IMG/VR virus record: IMGVR_UViG_3300045988_094011
Strand: one strand, 5' to 3'
DNA: 45,680 nucleotides
Origin: a virus
The position numbers and the translations under genes are program-made. Under the pieces are notes generated by a model. That model saw only the letters and a program-made list of their open reading frames with translations. It was not told the DNA's origin and made no database searches. This document shows, piece by piece, positions 10,963-38,957 of the stretch (its first letter is position 1; each line of letters starts with the position of its first letter).

Positions 10963-11116
10963 AATTTACCTCCTTTTTAACACTATGCCAACACCAAACT
11001 GGTTTTTGAACGAACTACTACAAATAGCTTTAAAATAAGGATGGTTAAAAAGTTTTAAGTATAATTCAGTGTCAGCATACTGCTAAAAAGCAGTACATAA
11101 TTAGATTGGAGATTTT

Positions 11117-11291
11117 AGTATCCTTAATAGATACTGTCTAATGATATAATATAGATTTGCACTATATTTCTTACCACGATAGGTTGACTATTGCCTTTGT
11201 TACTTGTCCTATTGTTTTTGCTACAAGTAAGGAATAACTCTTTTTACTATATAAACTATATATCACTAGACACTACCTATTAAAGTAGTGT
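11117..11291 (-). ncRNA. Module U5
   Basis: H1 is ACACUAC-UUUAAUAG-GUAGUGU. An 11-bp helix CUAGUGAUAUA / UAUAUCAUUAG has 1 G-U and closes a ~110-nt internal domain. H2 is AGUAUC-UAUUAAG-GAUACU. Confidence 0.5.
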
Positions 11292-11321
11292 TTTTCTCTT
11301 GTGAGAAATAAAAATGAGCAT

Positions 11322-11437
11322 AGTACTTTAATAAGTACTGTACTAATGATAAAGCCACCACGGACGGTCTTGTCGTTAGAAGAGTCGAACTTCACTTTCT
11401 TACATATCATCAGTACACTACCTACTAGAGATAGTGT
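11322..11437 (-). ncRNA. Module U4
   Basis: H1 is ACACUA-UCUCUAGUAGG-UAGUGU. A 12-bp helix GUACUGAUGAUA / UAUCAUUAGUAC has 1 G-U. The internal domain carries a T-loop-like GAAG-UUCGACU-CUUC. The H2 equivalent is AGUACUU-AUUA-AAGUACU. The tail is AUGCUCAUUUUUAUUU. Confidence 0.5.
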
Positions 11438-11485
11438 TCACTGCTTATCCCCTCGGAGCTCGTCAGCAAATAAAATTAGAACTTC

Positions 11486-11615
11486 TAGTGTCTTATAGAC
11501 ACCATATCAAGTAAATATGTTGGAACAACCTCACTTATAGCAACAAGGTAATCATAGACCTGTCTAGTGTTCTATTTTTATATATTTACTCAATATGCTA
11601 CCTATAAGATAGCAT
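11486..11615 (-). ncRNA. Module U3
   Basis: H1 is AUGCUA-UCUUAUAGG-UAGCAU. A 15-bp helix AUAUUGAGUAAAUAU / AUAUUUACUUGAUAU has 2 G-U. H2 is UGGUGUC-UAUAA-GACACUA (1 G-U). The tail is AGUUCUAAUUUUAUUU. Confidence 0.55.
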
Positions 11616-11817
11616 CACTATTTTCAACATACTTAATATCAACGACATATTAGATATGTGATTTCATGTAGACGACTTCGTTCGTTGTCTAGGGTATTAG
11701 TCGTTTTCCCCACCTCTAAACTAAAGACTTTGTTTACTCTCATAATTAAATAATTTTAACAACTTCTTCGCAAACACAGGATTTTATGCGTTTTCTTAAA
11801 AGTAAAACTAGAACTGA

Positions 11818-11937
11818 TAGTGCCTTATAGACACCATAGAATAGATAAGAACTATATCTTCCCAATGTTCTACTGATTCATATAGTTAACCTTATAGAAC
11901 AGGTTTATCTATCCTATGCTACCTATGAGGGTAGCAC
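11818..11937 (-). ncRNA. Module U2
   Basis: H1 is GUGCUACC-CUCAUA-GGUAGCAU (1 G-U). A 13-bp helix AUAGGAUAGAUAA / UUAUCUAUUCUAU (1 G-U) encloses a possible pseudoknot (AACUAUAU/AUAUAGUU interleaved with GUUCUA/UAGAAC). H2 is UGGUGUC-UAUAA-GGCACUA (2 G-U). A U-rich tail follows. Confidence 0.55.
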
Positions 11938-11965
11938 TAAAGTAAATGAAAAAGTGGTTTTACCT

Positions 11966-12048
11966 GGCACCTTATAGGCACCAATAGACCTAGAACTCTG
12001 AGCATGCTTAATTCTAAATCTATTGCAACCTACGAGGCATCGTCGTAG
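11966..12048 (-). ncRNA. Module U1
   Basis: Given in RNA sense. H1 is CUACGA/UCGUAG (12048-12030, overlapping the stop of the upstream ORF). The long helix is CAAUAGA..UAGAA / UUCUA..UCUAUUG (12025-11982). H2 is GGUGCC-UAUAA-GGUGCC (11982-11966), which pairs only as RNA through two tandem G-U. Confidence 0.5.
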
Positions 12049-12583: not shown

Positions 12584-12772
12584 TTTTTTATTTTTCCCGT
12601 TTTTTTTTATTTTATGGAGTTGGAAGGGAGAAATCTTAATATAATATATCACGCACAGGCAAGGACTCATATAGACATCATTTCAAACCCACCCCAGGTA
12701 TGCGTAACTGTTACACATACAACAAAATATTTTCTAGCTTTCTCTTATTTATGGGCTTCAATTTATAAAATT

Positions 12773-12841
12773 CACATTATTACATAATATGTATATGCAA
12801 CCACTTCTTCACATTATTACATATATTACACATTATTACAT
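12773..12841. repeat. Three direct copies of CACATTATTACAT in the divergent control region (candidate operator/iteron sites)
   Basis: Exact 13-mers at 12773-12785, 12810-12822 and 12829-12841, plus a partial copy (gacacatt) near 12853. Confidence 0.85.
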
Positions 12842-13020
12842 TGTCGAATTATGACACATTGGAAAAAACTATACAGAAAACCTATACATTGAAAATTCAA
12901 TTTGCTCATCTGCTTAACATCAATTTTTTTAAAATTTTACGTTTTTTTGTCGTATTATGTTTAATTGGTTTTCATTATACAGTTATATTATATAATTATA
13001 ATAATATATTTATATAGTTG

Positions 13021-13122: not shown

Positions 13123-13151
13123 TTGACATTACCAAAAATTGGTGATAATAT
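13123..13151 (+). promoter_or_regulatory. Strong sigma-A-type early promoter
   Basis: TTGACA (13123-13128), a 17-nt spacer, then TAATAT (13146-13151) preceded by a TG (extended -10). Confidence 0.75.
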
Positions 13152-13825: not shown

Positions 13826-14143
13826 ATGAGAATGTACGAATTAGAACCACAATATGACAGTAGAGCAAGCTTTTATGGAAAAGCACAAGTAACTGCAGAG
13901 CATACAATTATTGACAGTGAAGAGCTAAAACTATATAGTTATGGCACTTTAGTTGCAAGCGTTGAGCATACTAACCTTAAAACTATATTTAGATATAATG
14001 GTTACTATTCACAAACTACAACTAGACATCAGAAAGAGTTCTTTTTTCAAGAGGGTTTACATCAAAAAGACTGGGAACTATTAAAGAAACAAGGAACAAT
14101 CACATATGCAGAGAACGGAGATGTTTTAGATGGAAATTTATAA
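13826..14143 (+). CDS. Hypothetical 105-aa early protein
   Basis: ORF with a GAGGAG SD, tightly packed with its neighbours. Confidence 0.6.
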   Translation: MRMYELEPQYDSRASFYGKAQVTAEHTIIDSEELKLYSYGTLVASVEHTNLKTIFRYNGYYSQTTTRHQKEFFFQEGLHQKDWELLKKQGTITYAENGDVLDGNL

Positions 14144-14561
14144 AACTTCAATTAAATTAGTAAGAGAATCAACAGTGCAATATGATAATATTACTATAAA
14201 AAATATAGCTGATGTTATTAAATTAGTTGACAATATAGAAGATATAAAAAACAATGATGTAGAAAATGTTTATATAATTTGTTTGAATAATAAAAATGTA
14301 CCTATAAACTATTCTTTAGTTGCTAAAGGTACTATTAATTCATCAATGATTGACCCAAAAACAATATTTAAAACAATATTATTAAGTAATGCTAGTGCTT
14401 TTATAATGGTTCATAATCACCCAAGTGGAGACCCAGCACCAAGCAAGGAAGATTATGAAATAACAAATATTATAGAAAAGGCTAGTAAGTTATTAGATAT
14501 TAAATTTTTAGACCATATAATTATTGGTGACAATAAGTATATTAGTTGTGTGGAGGTATAA
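14130..14561 (+). CDS. radC: RadC-like JAB/MPN domain protein
   Basis: Contains the JAMM-type signature HNHPSGDPAPSKED..DHIIIG, characteristic of RadC/DUF2466. Confidence 0.85.
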   Translation: MEIYKTSIKLVRESTVQYDNITIKNIADVIKLVDNIEDIKNNDVENVYIICLNNKNVPINYSLVAKGTINSSMIDPKTIFKTILLSNASAFIMVHNHPSGDPAPSKEDYEITNIIEKASKLLDIKFLDHIIIGDNKYISCVEV

Positions 14562-15248: not shown

Positions 15249-15662
15249 ATGATACTAGATGAAAAACAAATTGAGTTATTAGATGATATTTTATTCTATT
15301 TAGGTTGTCTTGAGGGAGAAAAAGCACAAGAACTTAATAATAAACTTTATCATGAGATACTAGAAAAAAAGGGAAAATCTAAAAATATAAAAGAATTTCT
15401 TATTAAAAAATATGGGGAGCAGATTTTAAAATATAAAGCAGTTGATTATATTTGCTATATTTTAGACAATTGTTTCAATGGTAACAAAATGAAAATGGGA
15501 GATATACAAAAAGAAGTTGCAACACATTTCCAAACAACAGCCTATGGAGTTGAAAGAGTTATCAGATATTTTAGAATTAATATTATTAATGATATTTCAC
15601 GTTCTAATAAAGCCTTTATATTTAAGTTAGCGTTTGAATATGAAAAAGAAAGGAGTTTATAA
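15249..15662 (+). CDS. Orphan Spo0A C-terminal (DNA-binding) domain-like protein without a receiver domain
   Basis: The C-terminal half KAVDYICYILDN..MGDIQKEVATHFQTTAYGVERVIRYF parallels the Spo0A effector-domain segment as I remember it ([38 protein letters not shown]). The 60-aa N-terminal region is not CheY-like. Confidence 0.5.
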   Translation: MILDEKQIELLDDILFYLGCLEGEKAQELNNKLYHEILEKKGKSKNIKEFLIKKYGEQILKYKAVDYICYILDNCFNGNKMKMGDIQKEVATHFQTTAYGVERVIRYFRINIINDISRSNKAFIFKLAFEYEKERSL

Positions 15663-16389: not shown

Positions 16390-16719
16390 ATGAAAACTAT
16401 GGACAGTATGGGACGTTTAACTATACCAAAAGATATAAGAGAACGTCTAAATATGCAAGATGGGTGTGACTTTAACATTATTACAGATGGGGAAACTATC
16501 AAGTTAATACCAGCAATTAGAAAACATCAAATTGATGATGCTGATATGATAGCCTTAAGAAAATTATTTATAATGTTAAAGAGTACTGGTATTTTAGATA
16601 GTTATTATACAGAATTAATGGCTAAAATAACTAAACAAAGTGAGAACAAATGTTTCAAATGTGGAGAAAACTTATTCTTAGCCTCAGATGATACGTTTAA
16701 ATGCTATAATTGTGATTAG
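16390..16719 (+). CDS. AbrB/SpoVT-type DNA-binding protein with a C-terminal zinc ribbon
   Basis: The N-terminus MGRLTIPKDIRERLNMQDG.. is the swapped-hairpin AbrB/MazE pattern. The C-terminus carries CFKCG..x14..CYNC. Confidence 0.7.
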   Translation: MKTMDSMGRLTIPKDIRERLNMQDGCDFNIITDGETIKLIPAIRKHQIDDADMIALRKLFIMLKSTGILDSYYTELMAKITKQSENKCFKCGENLFLASDDTFKCYNCD

Positions 16720-29400: not shown

Positions 29401-30306
29401 ATGAATTTAAAAGAAAATAAAAGACTTAAAGAGATTAAATTATCTATGTATATCAATCATATTGATAAAGCAAAAGACAAACTATTATACAGTAGATTGA
29501 TGAAGTTATTAAGCTGTTTAGTTGCTACACTTGGAAGAGATGCACATAATACATTCTCCAAGATAGTAGAATATAGTATAGGAGAAAATTTTCTAAAGGC
29601 AGCTCCTAAAGAACTTGTAGCAACTTGCAGAACCTTCTTTTCAAACAAAAAAGCAGCTGAGAAGATAGGTATAACTAATTCATCTTTCTATAACAGATAT
29701 AGAGATTTGTTAGATAGGGACTTCATAACTGAAGAGTTTGTTGAGTCTTTACATCCTATGTTTGAAACACAAGAGGAACAATTTGTTATAGATTTCCTAC
29801 TAAGTTTTATTGAGAATTTTAAGTATGACGTGGGGCATTATGATGCAGAATTAAAGGACAAAGAAAGAACCTTAGAGATAGAATTCTGGTTGATATACGA
29901 CAAAGTTATGGGAATTTTACAAAATAGTATAGTCTTTGATAAATTCATATTTAATATATGTAATATATTTGAAATTGACTATGGTTCTATAGCACATCTA
30001 AAAAACAGTATACATCTGATAAATAGGTCTTACCCTAATTTCAGATATAATAATAGATACTTTATGCAAGAATTAGTATACTTATATACCAAAAAAGGCT
30101 TGAATAAAAGTGCAATAAGTTCTAGAGTACTTGGTAAAGACTTTTCATTCTTGTATAGGGGTACTAATAAGAAATATAATGACTTAATAGATAGTGACAA
30201 TGTGGAATGGCAATATGTTCCTACTCTTGACTGGGAACATATACAAAGGGGTGATGTTATGAAATTTATAGAATTGTTTCATTCATGGGTGATGTACGAT
30301 GTATAA
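29401..30306 (+). CDS. Hypothetical 301-aa protein (possible replication initiator/loader with HTH)
   Basis: ORF between the primase-helicase and the polymerase. Has an HTH-like segment AAEKIGITNSSFYNRYRDLL. Confidence 0.45.
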   Translation: MNLKENKRLKEIKLSMYINHIDKAKDKLLYSRLMKLLSCLVATLGRDAHNTFSKIVEYSIGENFLKAAPKELVATCRTFFSNKKAAEKIGITNSSFYNRYRDLLDRDFITEEFVESLHPMFETQEEQFVIDFLLSFIENFKYDVGHYDAELKDKERTLEIEFWLIYDKVMGILQNSIVFDKFIFNICNIFEIDYGSIAHLKNSIHLINRSYPNFRYNNRYFMQELVYLYTKKGLNKSAISSRVLGKDFSFLYRGTNKKYNDLIDSDNVEWQYVPTLDWEHIQRGDVMKFIELFHSWVMYDV

Positions 30307-31984
30307 TGATACTCAATTTTTGTTCAATAAATATAACTATAAAACACTAGAAGTAAAAAACCAAAAAGACATCGAAGAGATGGAATGGGATTTTGCTTTT
30401 AGCAATACACGATATTTTGCATATGATACAGAAACAACAGGTTTAAATTTCATAAAAGATATACCTTTCTTAGTAATATTTGGTTTTGACAAGAATATAT
30501 ACTATTGGGATGCAAACTATAAAGAGGCTACTTGTGCAATGTTTAAGATAGTACAAAAAACAGATAAAATGTTGTTTGCACATAATGCTAAATATGATTA
30601 TCATATGTTACATAACATAGGAACACCTATACCAGACGCCATTGAGTTGTCAGATAGTATTACACTATTTAGATTAATAAGTAGTTGTGATGATGATTTC
30701 CAAAGTATGCGTCTTGAAAAACTAGGAGAAAAATATGTAGACCCTAGTGCAAAATTTGCAGGACACGAAATCAAAAAGAGAATAGAACATATGAAAGCTG
30801 AACGTAAAAAGATGGTATGTAATAACTATAAAGCATTAACAGGAGAAAAATCATACACAAAGGCTTGGGAAACATTTACTAATAAAGTAAGATTTATAAC
30901 AAAATATCATGAGTGTTTTGATGATTATAAAGAACCAGGCTATTATGATGTTTATCTAGAAAATCCTGAATTAGTAAAAATGTATGCTATTGATGACGTT
31001 GTCATAATACTTGAATTTTTAAATAAAGCAGGTGCTATCTATGCTAAAAAATACTGGAGTAAGGATGGCATAGATACAAGAACATGGAAAAGAGAAAATA
31101 AACTGATTAGAGGTATTGCTACTATGGAACGTAATGGTTTCAAAGTAGACGTAGATTACCTTGTTAATTCTCACTACAGAATAGAAAAGTTTAGAGAGCT
31201 ATTATATGATAAATTGCATGAACTTACGCATAGTACATGGAAAGTAGGACAACACGTAGAGATTAAGAAGTTCTTTCACAATGAATTTGGTTTAGACCTT
31301 GAAAAGAGTGATAAGAAAGCTATACAACAACTTACGCATCATGAAGATGTTCGTATTTCTGAAATAGCTAAACTAATCATAAAATTAAGAACAGTAGATA
31401 AATGGCTATCTACGTATATTGATGGTGTTTTAAATAAAATAGTTGAAGTTGATGGTGAATGGCGATTGTATACATCTATTAATAATAATGGTGCTGTAAG
31501 TGGTCGTGTAAGTTGTGACCTACAACAGATGCCTAAATATGCCATAAATGAAACCGATGATGATAATGAGCTACTTTTAGATGAATCTGTTACTGATGAC
31601 GATGGTGTAGAATTATTTCACCCTAGAAAATTTGTTATACCTAGTACAGGTTATAAGTTGTACTTTGAAGATTATTCACAAATGGAATTAAGAATACAAG
31701 CATACTACACCATTTTAGTAGGACATACAGATTATAATCTATGTAGAGCATATATGCCCTATGATTGTAAACTAAAAGATGGTACATTGTTTGATTACAA
31801 AAATCCAGAACATATAAAGCATGCTTATGACTGGGAATGGTTTAATCATGATGGTACAGAATGGGAACCAACAGACTTACATACTAAGACAACTCTTACA
31901 GCATTCCCTGAATTTAAAGATAGAACAGATACAAAAGAGTTTAAAAAGAAATGGCGATATTTGGGAAAATCGACTAACTTCGCT
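30299..31984 (+). CDS. Family A DNA polymerase, exon 1 (3'-5' exonuclease domain, motif A, first half of motif B)
   Basis: Exo I FAYDTETTGL, Exo II/III-like AHNAKYDYHML, and motif A FEDYSQMELRIQAYY. Motif B begins RYLGKSTNFA and is then interrupted. The listed ORF runs a few codons into the intron (..EMIIC stop). Confidence 0.8.
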
Positions 31985-32647
31985 GAGATGATAATATGTT
32001 AAGAACTTTTGTTTGTAAAAAATGTGGTATTACATTTCAAAAAGAAATGAAGACATCTTATGCATGGTATTGTGAAGATTGCAGAAAGAAAAGAGACGTA
32101 GAAATAAGTATGTCTGTTAAGAAACGAAAAGCACCTACAACTGAAGTGGGAGTAGGCAGTGGAAATAGTTCTAAGAACAAAGGACATTACACACATGGAA
32201 GTTTTAAAACAGGTATACAAGCCTACAGAAATATCTACAAAGACAATCACAAAGAATTAAAATGTGAGCTATGTGGTAGCACAAAATACTTATGTATTCA
32301 TCACATAGATTCTAATAGATATAATAATGATGTAGCAAATTTACAATGCTTATGCAAAAGTTGTCATCAAAAACATCACATAAAAAGAAACAAAAAAGGA
32401 CAGTTTACGGCGAATTAAAACTGTGTGAACCTTGACAAGGGTGTCCTAGAGATAGGGCTAACGAGGGAAGCCTAAGTCAGAAATGATATGGTAATCTCGT
32501 GCCAAGCCTCTTATGAGGAAGGTGTAACGACTATGGGTGATGAATGTAACCCAGTACACTAACTATTGTCACGTTAGTGGAAGTGCACAGCAACTCATTG
32601 AGTTGAAGAAATAGTCTAGTCCTTATGGAAACATAAGGTAGTACACG
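31985..32647 (+). mobile_element. Group I self-splicing intron (663 nt) carrying an HNH homing-endonuclease ORF
   Basis: It splits polymerase motif B. The 5' splice site follows a U (31984) and the intron ends in G (32647). GGCGAA at 32409-32414 can pair with the exon end UUCGCU with a terminal G-U (P1). GNRA-capped helices are present: GUCCUA-GAGA-UAGGGC at 32443-32458 and CCUUAUG-GAAA-CAUAAGG at 32621-32638. The 3' part is noticeably GC-richer. Confidence 0.75.
31996..32418 (+). CDS. HNH homing endonuclease (intron-encoded)
   Basis: HNH motif CELCGSTKYLCIHHIDSNRYNNDVANLQCLCKSCHQKHH, with an N-terminal zinc ribbon CKKCG..CEDC. Confidence 0.85.
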   Translation: MLRTFVCKKCGITFQKEMKTSYAWYCEDCRKKRDVEISMSVKKRKAPTTEVGVGSGNSSKNKGHYTHGSFKTGIQAYRNIYKDNHKELKCELCGSTKYLCIHHIDSNRYNNDVANLQCLCKSCHQKHHIKRNKKGQFTAN

Positions 32648-33136
32648 AAAAATTATGGTTGTGGAGCTAAAACATTAGCATCTAATTTGAACATAGACTT
32701 AGAAACAGCAACAAAATTGTCTGATGCCTATAATAGTGCATATCCTGGTGTTATAGAATATCAAAAAGTGGTGCAAACTGAATTAAACATGAAAGGCTAT
32801 GTAACTAACTTATATGGTAGACGTTATTACCTAGAGAATAGTACAAACTTCTACAAAGCAAATAACTATCTTATTCAAGGAACAGGTGCTGATGCCTTAA
32901 AAGAAGTTGAAATAAAGATATGTGATTATCTAAAAGACAAGAAGTCTAGATTTATATTACCTATACATGATGAGCTAGCCATAGAAGTACACCCTGATGA
33001 AGAAGCATTTGTACCACAAAAAGTGCAAGAGATTATGCAAAGTGTGGGGGATACTATAAAGTGGGTGCCTATGGTAGCAGAAGTAGAAGCTACTGAAACC
33101 AATTGGGCAGAAAAGAAAGAGGTAAACTTTGAGTAA
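32648..33136 (+). CDS. Family A DNA polymerase, exon 2 (rest of motif B, motif C)
   Basis: Reading KNYGCGAKTLASNL.. in frame with the listed ORF 32687..33136 completes motif B (KSTNFA|KNYG). Motif C is PIHDELAIEV. Confidence 0.75.
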   Translation, partial: KNYGCGAKTLASNLNIDLETATKLSDAYNSAYPGVIEYQKVVQTELNMKGYVTNLYGRRYYLENSTNFYKANNYLIQGTGADALKEVEIKICDYLKDKKSRFILPIHDELAIEVHPDEEAFVPQKVQEIMQSVGDTIKWVPMVAEVEATETNWAEKKEVNFE

Positions 33137-38763: not shown

Positions 38764-38957
38764 CAAAAAGAACCATCAAGGTCCTTTTTACCAGTATGGA
38801 AATATTTAATTAATGGAGGGCTCGGAGAATTTTGCAATCTCAATCAAGGTGTTGCAGACCTATGCCTTACTTTTTGGCTACGAACCCACTTAAGAGGCTT
38901 TATACCTCTTTGATTTCACATTTAAAATGTCTTATCCTTCTTATTCATTATTTAATA

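Follow-up and report, generated by a model that had tools for sequence, protein, structure and literature searches.

The 45,680-nt viral DNA stretch IMGVR_UViG_3300045988_094011 (the window, meaning the whole stretch that was analysed) encodes, at positions 15249-15662 of the plus strand, a protein of 137 amino acids (aa) in which a small N-terminal module is fused to a homolog of the effector domain of Spo0A, the DNA-binding part of the sporulation master switch. The protein has no receiver domain, and its effector domain is a shortened variant in which helix alphaE is missing. The gene and the parts of its product are located as follows (ORF, open reading frame; AF2, AlphaFold2; pLDDT, predicted local distance difference test).

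15249..15662, plus strand: Spo0A_C-like ORF, 137 codons and a TAA stop, ATG start; product identical to GenBank DAP38440.1
15236..15242, plus strand: ribosome-binding site GTGAGGA, 6 nt before the ATG, read from the sequence
15249..15383, plus strand: N-terminal module, residues 1-45; two predicted helices (5-20 and 24-40), AF2 pLDDT about 70
15384..15659, plus strand: Spo0A_C-like domain, residues 46-137; helices equivalent to alphaA, alphaB, alphaC, alphaD and alphaF (Pfam, hhalign, AF2, Foldseek, MAFFT)
15495..15584, plus strand: helix-turn-helix, with the alphaC equivalent at residues 83-94 and the recognition helix, equivalent to alphaD, at 98-112 (model and alignments)
15552..15566, plus strand: codons of E102, R103 and R106, aligned to E213, R214 and R217 of Bacillus subtilis Spo0A
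15585..15605, plus strand: short loop, residues 113-119, replacing the end of alphaD, alphaE and the flanking loops of Spo0A

The ORF named by the sequence-only reading was present on the plus strand with exactly the quoted sequence, as seen in the ORF list and in the sequence itself. Compared with a 90%-identical homolog in contig ERZ27279214 (L001), it gave a ratio of non-synonymous to synonymous substitution rates (dN/dS) of 0.115, with 0.14 for residues 1-45 and 0.10 for residues 46-137; it is a real gene under purifying selection in both of its modules. The ORF starts 2 nt past the stop codon of an upstream ORF of 40 aa and ends 2 nt before the next ATG. Translational coupling within an operon is suggested by its ribosome-binding site, which falls within the end of the 40-aa ORF.

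Homology to the Spo0A effector domain

The best Pfam match of the single sequence was Spo0A_C (PF08769; E 1.2e-3), with a score of 19.2 bits that lies below the gathering score of 25 bits. This match joined residues 61-108 to profile positions 13-63 of 104 and omitted the profile positions beyond about 63-72. PHROGs and NCBIfam gave nothing useful for the window protein, phmmer of the single sequence against the Protein Data Bank (PDB) gave no match, and no match was obtained by tblastn against 50,697 GenBank phages or by nucleotide megablast of the region. A phmmer search of 1.84 billion representative proteins returned six homologs at E <=1e-3, and two further rounds of profile search enlarged the family to about 20 proteins; precomputed PF08769 assignments are carried by 11 relatives. 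All 20 aligned members of the family matched Spo0A_C at E <=0.01 (best 9.3e-9). A check against Pfam, as the sequence-only reading had advised, thus gave a match below the cut-off for the window protein alone and matches for its whole family.

Comparison of profiles pointed the same way. A five-sequence profile run against the PDB ranked 1LQ1 and 1FC3 first and second. Alignment of the family profile by hhalign with residues 150-267 of B. subtilis Spo0A (a reference sequence checked as identical to 1LQ1) gave 92.5% and E 5e-7, and alignment with a profile of five canonical effector domains gave 94% and E 1.5e-7, pairing query positions 12-89 with template positions 12-110. The window protein is about 23-26% identical to Spo0A_C. 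The domain at residues 46-137 is truly homologous to the effector domain of Spo0A, while membership of PF08769, judged from these scores, is best regarded as one by transitive homology, below the curated cut-off for the single sequence. The homology first seen by eye in the C-terminal ~75 aa was therefore borne out by the family profiles and by the structural model described below, but the domain proved longer than had been supposed, extending over about 90 aa (residues ~46-135). One further match, a metagenomic tandem-repeat protein of 996 aa (P0002) that matched query residues 35-87 in 8 stretches (E 2e-11, 37% identity), was set aside as a homolog, its score probably being inflated by the repeats.

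Predicted structure and recognition helix

The AF2 model of the full-length protein had a pLDDT of 81.8, and Spo0A chains made up five of its top eight PDB matches. The model of residues 44-137 had a pLDDT of 92.7 and a predicted template modelling (pTM) score of 0.84. When it was compared with the PDB by Foldseek, the six best matches were all Spo0A effector-domain chains from 1FC3 and 1LQ1, with probabilities of 0.96-1.00, template modelling (TM) scores of 0.57-0.68 and root mean square deviations of 2.8-4.7 Å; the next-best fold other than Spo0A reached a TM score of at most 0.47. The Foldseek E-values were weak (0.1-0.4), as is usual for a helical domain of about 90 residues; what counts here is the ranking, together with the distance to the next fold. 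Among the viral structures of BFVD, the best matches were all uncultured-phage proteins annotated as 'Sporulation initiation factor Spo0A C terminal'. The structural comparison proposed in the sequence-only reading hence came out in favour of the Spo0A effector-domain fold.

A global MAFFT alignment with Spo0A 150-267 was collinear from alphaA to alphaF. In this alignment FLIKKYGEQILKYKAVDYICYIL was paired with a 21-residue segment of Spo0A, IQKEVATHFQTTAYGVERVIRYFR with a 24-residue segment and SNKAFIFKLAFEY with TNSEFIAMVADKL. The phage domain shares with the effector domain of Spo0A (PF08769, 1FC3, 1LQ1) the order of helices alphaA-alphaB-alphaC-alphaD...alphaF, the helix-turn-helix and the VERxIR signature, and the phage motifs 'KYG..YKGF' and 'TNxxFI' are collinear with 'EIG..IKGY' and 'TNSEFI' of Spo0A. 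It differs in the lack of alphaE, and the protein as a whole differs in the lack of a receiver and in the presence of an unrelated N-terminal module of 45 aa. The helix-turn-helix corresponds to helices H40-50 and H55-69 of the C-domain model. The signature helix was recognised correctly from the start: FQTTAYGVERVIRY aligns with a 14-residue segment of B. subtilis Spo0A. Only six positions were invariant across the 20 family members, namely L51, Y55 and Y62, which are core hydrophobic or aromatic residues, and E102, R103 and R106, which align with VERAIRH of the Spo0A recognition helix. In Spo0A the corresponding residues E213, R214 and R217 are said to contact or read bases. The Spo0A DNA-binding domain reads G2, C4 and G5 of the 0A-box consensus TGTCGAA base-specifically (PMC3485338).

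A chance similarity, in which the window protein would be a generic helix-turn-helix protein, is what the single-sequence Pfam score below the cut-off and the Foldseek E-values of only 0.1-0.4 might indicate. Opposed to it are the Spo0A_C matches of all 20 relatives, the hhalign result across the whole domain, the top six PDB folds, every one of them Spo0A and clearly separated from the next fold, the Spo0A_C annotation of all the best viral folds, and the collinear alignment from alphaA to alphaF. These homology and fold tests leave the chance reading so improbable that it is effectively refuted.

Deletion of alphaE

The six-helix arrangement that had been expected of a Spo0A fold is not intact, since two alignments and the model agree on a deletion of ~17-19 residues that takes out alphaE. 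The gap lies opposite AWSRGNIDSISSLFGYT(VS) of B. subtilis Spo0A, at about residues 223-241, and measures 18-19 columns in MAFFT and 17 columns in hhalign. In the model of residues 44-137, the equivalents of alphaD and alphaF are joined by a loop of just seven residues. The deletion is common to the whole phage family, whereas receiver-less copies in other 'Bacteriophage sp.' contigs retain alphaE. The phage domain is therefore a shortened variant of Spo0A_C.

The N-terminal module

For residues 1-45 no Pfam or PDB match was obtained even at E <=10, and the module was accordingly rejected as a receiver, as a Spo0E-like domain or as another known domain. The Pfam family Response_reg had no match in the window protein; as, in addition, the N-terminus is too short for a receiver and all-helical, the protein has no receiver domain and is not a Spo0A ortholog (K07699/COG5801). 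The statement that the N-terminal 60 aa are not CheY-like was upheld by these results, but the part without homology to Spo0A is limited to about 45 aa. The main claim of the sequence-only reading, a receiver-less homolog of the Spo0A effector domain encoded by a phage, held on both counts, the effector domain being present and the receiver absent.

Residues 1-45 are 67% identical to P0003, a free-standing ORF of 49 aa that lies in the early region of another phage and is followed there by an unrelated ORF. Since the module occurs there on its own, the window protein can be described as a small phage module fused to a mini Spo0A_C domain. The other 18 of the 20 family members lack the module, and those outside the clade of the window are all free-standing proteins of 91-104 aa.

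The phage genome and the position of the gene

The window is an essentially complete phage genome of ~46 kb with ~30% GC. The genes for the large terminase, the portal, the major head protein, a GH25-type endolysin and collagen-like tail fibres lie in modules on the minus strand. A plus-strand block (~13.2-33.4 kb) holds the genes of many small early proteins and those of RadC, a protein of the AbrB family, RecE/Erf/SSB, an SNF2 helicase, a primase and a family-A DNA polymerase (Pol A). No integrase was seen among the window ORFs scanned. The identical protein was found on 17 assembled contigs, 12 of them of 20-50 kb (e.g. 46,894 bp); none of these contigs showed host flanks, and the samples include human-gut metagenomes. 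The gene is thus encoded on a bona fide phage genome.

The following features of the plus-strand operon bear on the expression and the neighbourhood of the gene.

13123..13151, plus strand: candidate early promoter TTGACA-17 nt-TAATAT with an upstream TG, from a consensus scan; heads the plus-strand operon that contains the gene
14130-14561, plus strand: RadC-like JAB domain protein of the early operon, Pfam E 2.8e-38, with an intact HNHPSGDPxPS motif
16390-16719, plus strand: protein with an AbrB-family DNA-binding domain, TIGR01439, 33.5 bits, above cut-off

The candidate promoter is kept in L001 and L047. The Spo0A_C-like gene lies 2.1 kb downstream of this strong consensus promoter on the replication strand, so that the early expression assumed in the sequence-only reading agrees with its placement in an early, replication-strand operon. 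The AbrB-family gene belongs to the same operon as the Spo0A_C-like gene and begins 730 nt downstream of it; its product has a zinc-ribbon-like C-terminal tail (CxxC...CxxC) and is kept in L001 and L047. AbrB of B. subtilis is a transition-state regulator repressed by Spo0A. The phage thus carries look-alikes of both AbrB and Spo0A.

The phages of the short homologs encode YqaJ/RecE, DUF1351, Erf, SSB, a primase of 947 aa and Pol A, followed by a convergent gene of ~1300-1470 aa, and the Spo0A_C homolog stands directly after Pol A. In the window this position is taken up by the C-terminal piece of Pol A, whose gene is divided by an HNH endonuclease ORF, and by a VRR-NUC-like ORF; the presence of another Spo0A_C paralog there was accordingly rejected. 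The early-gene site in the window and the site after Pol A elsewhere characterise the Spo0A_C-like gene as a mobile accessory gene of this phage group. In a related phage (L008/L009, 422-1990) a Stealth_CR2/GT2 glycosyltransferase of 522 aa is inserted between the mini Spo0A_C gene and the VRR-NUC-like ORF, which suggests a hotspot for accessory genes behind Pol A.

Proposed mode of action

Helix alphaE is reportedly the sigma-A-activating region of Spo0A. It is said to be needed for sigma-A-dependent activation of the spoIIG type, and to be dispensable for DNA binding and for sigma-H-dependent activation. As this helix is deleted, occlusion of DNA or repression is likelier than activation, and of the two outcomes that had been envisaged, activating or blocking the host regulon, the former is unlikely at sigma-A promoters. 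As there is no receiver, DNA binding by the phage protein would not be gated by phosphorylation.

We propose that the protein would occupy 0A-box-like sites (TGNCGAA) from the start of infection. Without alphaE it would act by occupancy of the DNA, as a repressor or competitor and not as an activator, and it would mimic the repressive arm of phosphorylated Spo0A (Spo0A~P) and keep the Spo0A~P of the host off the promoters that it activates. The host would be held out of sporulation, in the vegetative state, while the phage replicates. For this explanation as a whole, a receiver-less and alphaE-less Spo0A_C protein that occupies 0A boxes and blocks host sporulation, we regard the chances as evenly balanced. 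Besides the homology, the fold and the invariant residues, it draws on the purifying selection on both modules, the phage setting of the gene, its position downstream of the strong consensus promoter, the neighbouring AbrB-family regulator and the phosphorylation-independent binding of the isolated Spo0A DNA-binding domain (PMC3485338). Speculatively, the N-terminal hairpin might substitute for the dimerisation that is normally provided by the phosphorylated receiver.

A more general form of the idea is tentative and on the whole rather doubtful. Here alphaE-less mini Spo0A_C proteins would be dedicated dominant-negative mimics of Spo0A that sit on 0A boxes at promoters, and possibly at oriC, unable to recruit sigma-A RNA polymerase; the host would be locked out of sporulation, or its replication halted, in lytic growth, and in the clade of the window the fused N-terminal hairpin would replace phosphorylation-driven dimerisation. 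If true, it would be the first case, at the level of mechanism, in which a phage uses a stripped-down version of the sporulation master switch to disable that switch.

By sporulating, bacteria escape phage infection and also trap phage genomes. In gut Firmicutes, spore formation governs transmission and persistence, and a signal-independent copy of the Spo0A DNA-binding domain would, if the proposal is true, let a phage override the sporulation decision of these bacteria. The deletion of alphaE makes the proposal falsifiable, as it predicts repression or competition and not activation through sigma-A.

Among the other roles that a DNA-binding domain could have, a block of host replication appears improbable. 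The protein would in this case bind to the host oriC, at Spo0A boxes overlapping DnaA boxes, and halt new rounds of replication. Spo0A~P does bind such overlapping boxes in oriC of B. subtilis and affects copy number (PMC5295017). A domain that binds DNA and lacks alphaE would suffice for occlusion, and the family usually lies within the replication module, adjoining Pol A. The idea is, however, entirely inferential, and the effect of Spo0A at the B. subtilis oriC is minor compared with those of Sda and SirA (PMC5295017).

Even less probable is a protein decoy, which would titrate a host protein that normally interacts with the Spo0A effector domain, such as an inhibitor or RNA polymerase sigma, or form heterodimers with the host Spo0A through its N-terminal module. 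In favour of a decoy, the module is unique to the clade and under purifying selection. But the sigma-A-contacting helix alphaE is deleted, the invariant residues lie on the DNA-recognition helix and not on a protein-interaction surface, and 18 of 20 family members do without the module.

Candidate 0A boxes and a possible phage-internal role

Possible target sites were found in the divergent early control region of the phage.

12842..12848, plus strand: perfect 0A-box consensus TGTCGAA in the divergent early control region, a possible target site
12948-12954: one-mismatch box TGTCGTA in the same control region
12765-12860: repeat motif (T)TCACATTATTACAT, three copies and a degenerate fourth, in the divergent early control region; perfectly conserved in L001

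The box at 12842 directly follows the third CACATTATTACAT repeat, and the repeats look like operator sites of some regulator. Both boxes are kept in the ~90%-identical L001, where the counterpart of the 12842 box is the only TGTCGAA in 11.9 kb; the whole control region is 91% identical between the window and L001. A conservation of the box in a more distant relative (L056, in which the neighbouring gene is 56% identical) was not found, as the control region of L056 has no TGNCGAA. Nor are 0A boxes enriched over the genome of the phage: TGTCGAA was counted twice against 1.06 expected, and TGNCGAA four times against 4.26 expected. The 12842 box can be taken as a weak lead, not as evidence.

Sites on phage DNA would suit a phage-internal regulator of transcription or replication. 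In this alternative, which is possible but rather unlikely, a Spo0A_C fold captured long ago would act at the early control region, or in the early-to-late switch, and would have no role in sporulation. The clade of the window keeps TGTCGAA in the control region beside the CACATTATTACAT repeats, and two of the nine core-preserving 0A-like boxes of the genome lie inside this 0.6-kb region, although the region for this clustering was chosen post hoc. Most related phages hold the homolog directly after Pol A at the junction with convergent late genes, and the host may not be a spore-former. A phage-internal role is disfavoured by the absence of 0A-box enrichment and by the control region of L056. 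Also, the invariant base-reading residues of Spo0A suggest that the ancestral specificity has been kept, which would be useful mainly on the 0A boxes of a host.

Host and weight of the sporulation proposal

The closest relatives of the endolysin are 70% identical in the catalytic part and 52-67% identical in the wall-binding part, and are located in low-GC metagenome-assembled genomes ('Bacilli bacterium' or 'Clostridia bacterium') obtained from the guts of herbivores. Wall-binding domains of Virgibacillus and allies were more distantly related. No other phage genes were shared with those endolysin loci. These relatives point to a low-GC gut Firmicute as the host.

Several points weigh against a block of host sporulation. 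The main weakness is that the host may not sporulate or may not even encode Spo0A. In most related phages the homolog closes the replication module, behind the DNA polymerase, and does not lie among the early genes; this position fits a phage-internal role equally well. At the low identity to Spo0A_C (~23-26%) the specificity may have drifted, and a Cys is found in alphaB where Spo0A and most relatives have an Arg. In the literature searched, no phage Spo0A_C protein was found for which DNA binding or a phenotype had been reported.

Known systems and earlier records

The annotation, the class of gene and the hypothesis are already public, and the present find adds little as a discovery. The 90%-identity cluster of the window protein holds P0037, which is GenBank DAP38440.1 with no differences from the window protein and is entitled 'MAG TPA: Sporulation initiation factor Spo0A C terminal [Caudoviricetes sp.]'. 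Phage-carried truncated spo0A homologs were described by Schwartz et al. (mBio 2023, PMC10294663), who proposed a phosphorylation-independent control of the Spo0A regulon; no experimental follow-up of this hypothesis was found in the literature searched. These homologs and the 'Spo0A C terminal' proteins of Caudoviricetes (DAP38440.1, BFVD A0A8S5U7U3) resemble the window protein in consisting of the effector domain only, in being phage-encoded and in coming from the human gut, and neither group differs from it in kind. At the level of the sub-family, the deletion of alphaE and the fusion at the N-terminus add useful detail that sharpens the testable prediction. As the gene class is known from bioinformatics alone, a well-conserved example that is abundant in the human gut (17 contigs) is a reasonable first candidate for experiments.

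Stand-alone Spo0A_C proteins without a receiver are also encoded by the GenBank 'Bacteriophage sp.' records MT835743 (164 aa) and MT835614 (113 aa). Unlike the window protein, these copies keep the alphaE segment (e.g. AAWLKGDVDALYNEFGET), and they are 31-40% identical to the B. subtilis Spo0A_C. In MT835614.1 (L052, 1930-3342) the gene lies directly downstream of a SpoIVB-like peptidase gene; this is the bacterial spoIVB-spo0A arrangement, so that the contig may be bacterial. MT835504.1 (L053, 1994-2854) encodes a full-length Spo0A with a receiver and has two 0A boxes upstream; it was left out as a phage precedent, being probably bacterial contamination. Both L052 and L053 are 'UNVERIFIED Bacteriophage sp.' contigs from human faeces in GenBank, and some 'phage spo0A' records may be bacterial fragments.

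Two further systems can be compared. The sad67 allele is a receiver deletion that gives a constitutive Spo0A. The isolated DNA-binding domain of Spo0A binds its legitimate targets without phosphorylation, and the phage protein resembles this engineered form in that removal of the receiver lifts the phosphorylation requirement for DNA binding (PMC3485338). The engineered constitutive constructs keep alphaE and activate sigma-A promoters, whereas the phage protein lacks alphaE. Phage phi29 offers a comparable link between a virulent Firmicute phage and 0A boxes. Binding of Spo0A to the 0A boxes of phi29 reportedly represses phage promoters and replication. The difference is that phi29 carries 0A boxes and uses the Spo0A of its host, while the window phage carries a Spo0A-like protein and at most one or two boxes.

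Other features of the phage genome

A stretch of ~1.07 kb without a convincing ORF was observed at 10963-12029, between the terminase gene and a divergent gene of 178 aa. It is rich in repeated hairpins, such as GTGTC-TTATA-GACAC, GCTACC-TATAAG-ATAGC and ACACTAC-CTATTAAA-GTAGTGT (families D1-D3, D12 and D13; inverted repeats I2, I3 and I11), and no Rfam family reached its gathering score there. Small structured RNAs may be clustered in this stretch, or it may serve as a site of packaging or replication. Rfam called a tRNA at 38817-38887 on the minus strand, between late genes, with 42.9 bits (gathering score 29) over the full length 1-71; ARAGORN found no tRNA anywhere in the window.

The polymerase gene mentioned above is arranged as follows.

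30299-33136, plus strand: split family-A DNA polymerase gene, of which 30299-32002 is the N-terminal part (567 aa)

The N-terminal part is followed by the HNH endonuclease ORF at 31996-32418, a gap of 268 nt and the C-terminal piece at 32687-33136, which carries the motifs 'LIQGTGADALK' and 'PIHDELAIEV'. Related phages (L003 and L044) have a single uninterrupted Pol A of 724 aa. The arrangement in the window may be due to an intron or to the insertion of a homing endonuclease, or the polymerase may be genuinely split.

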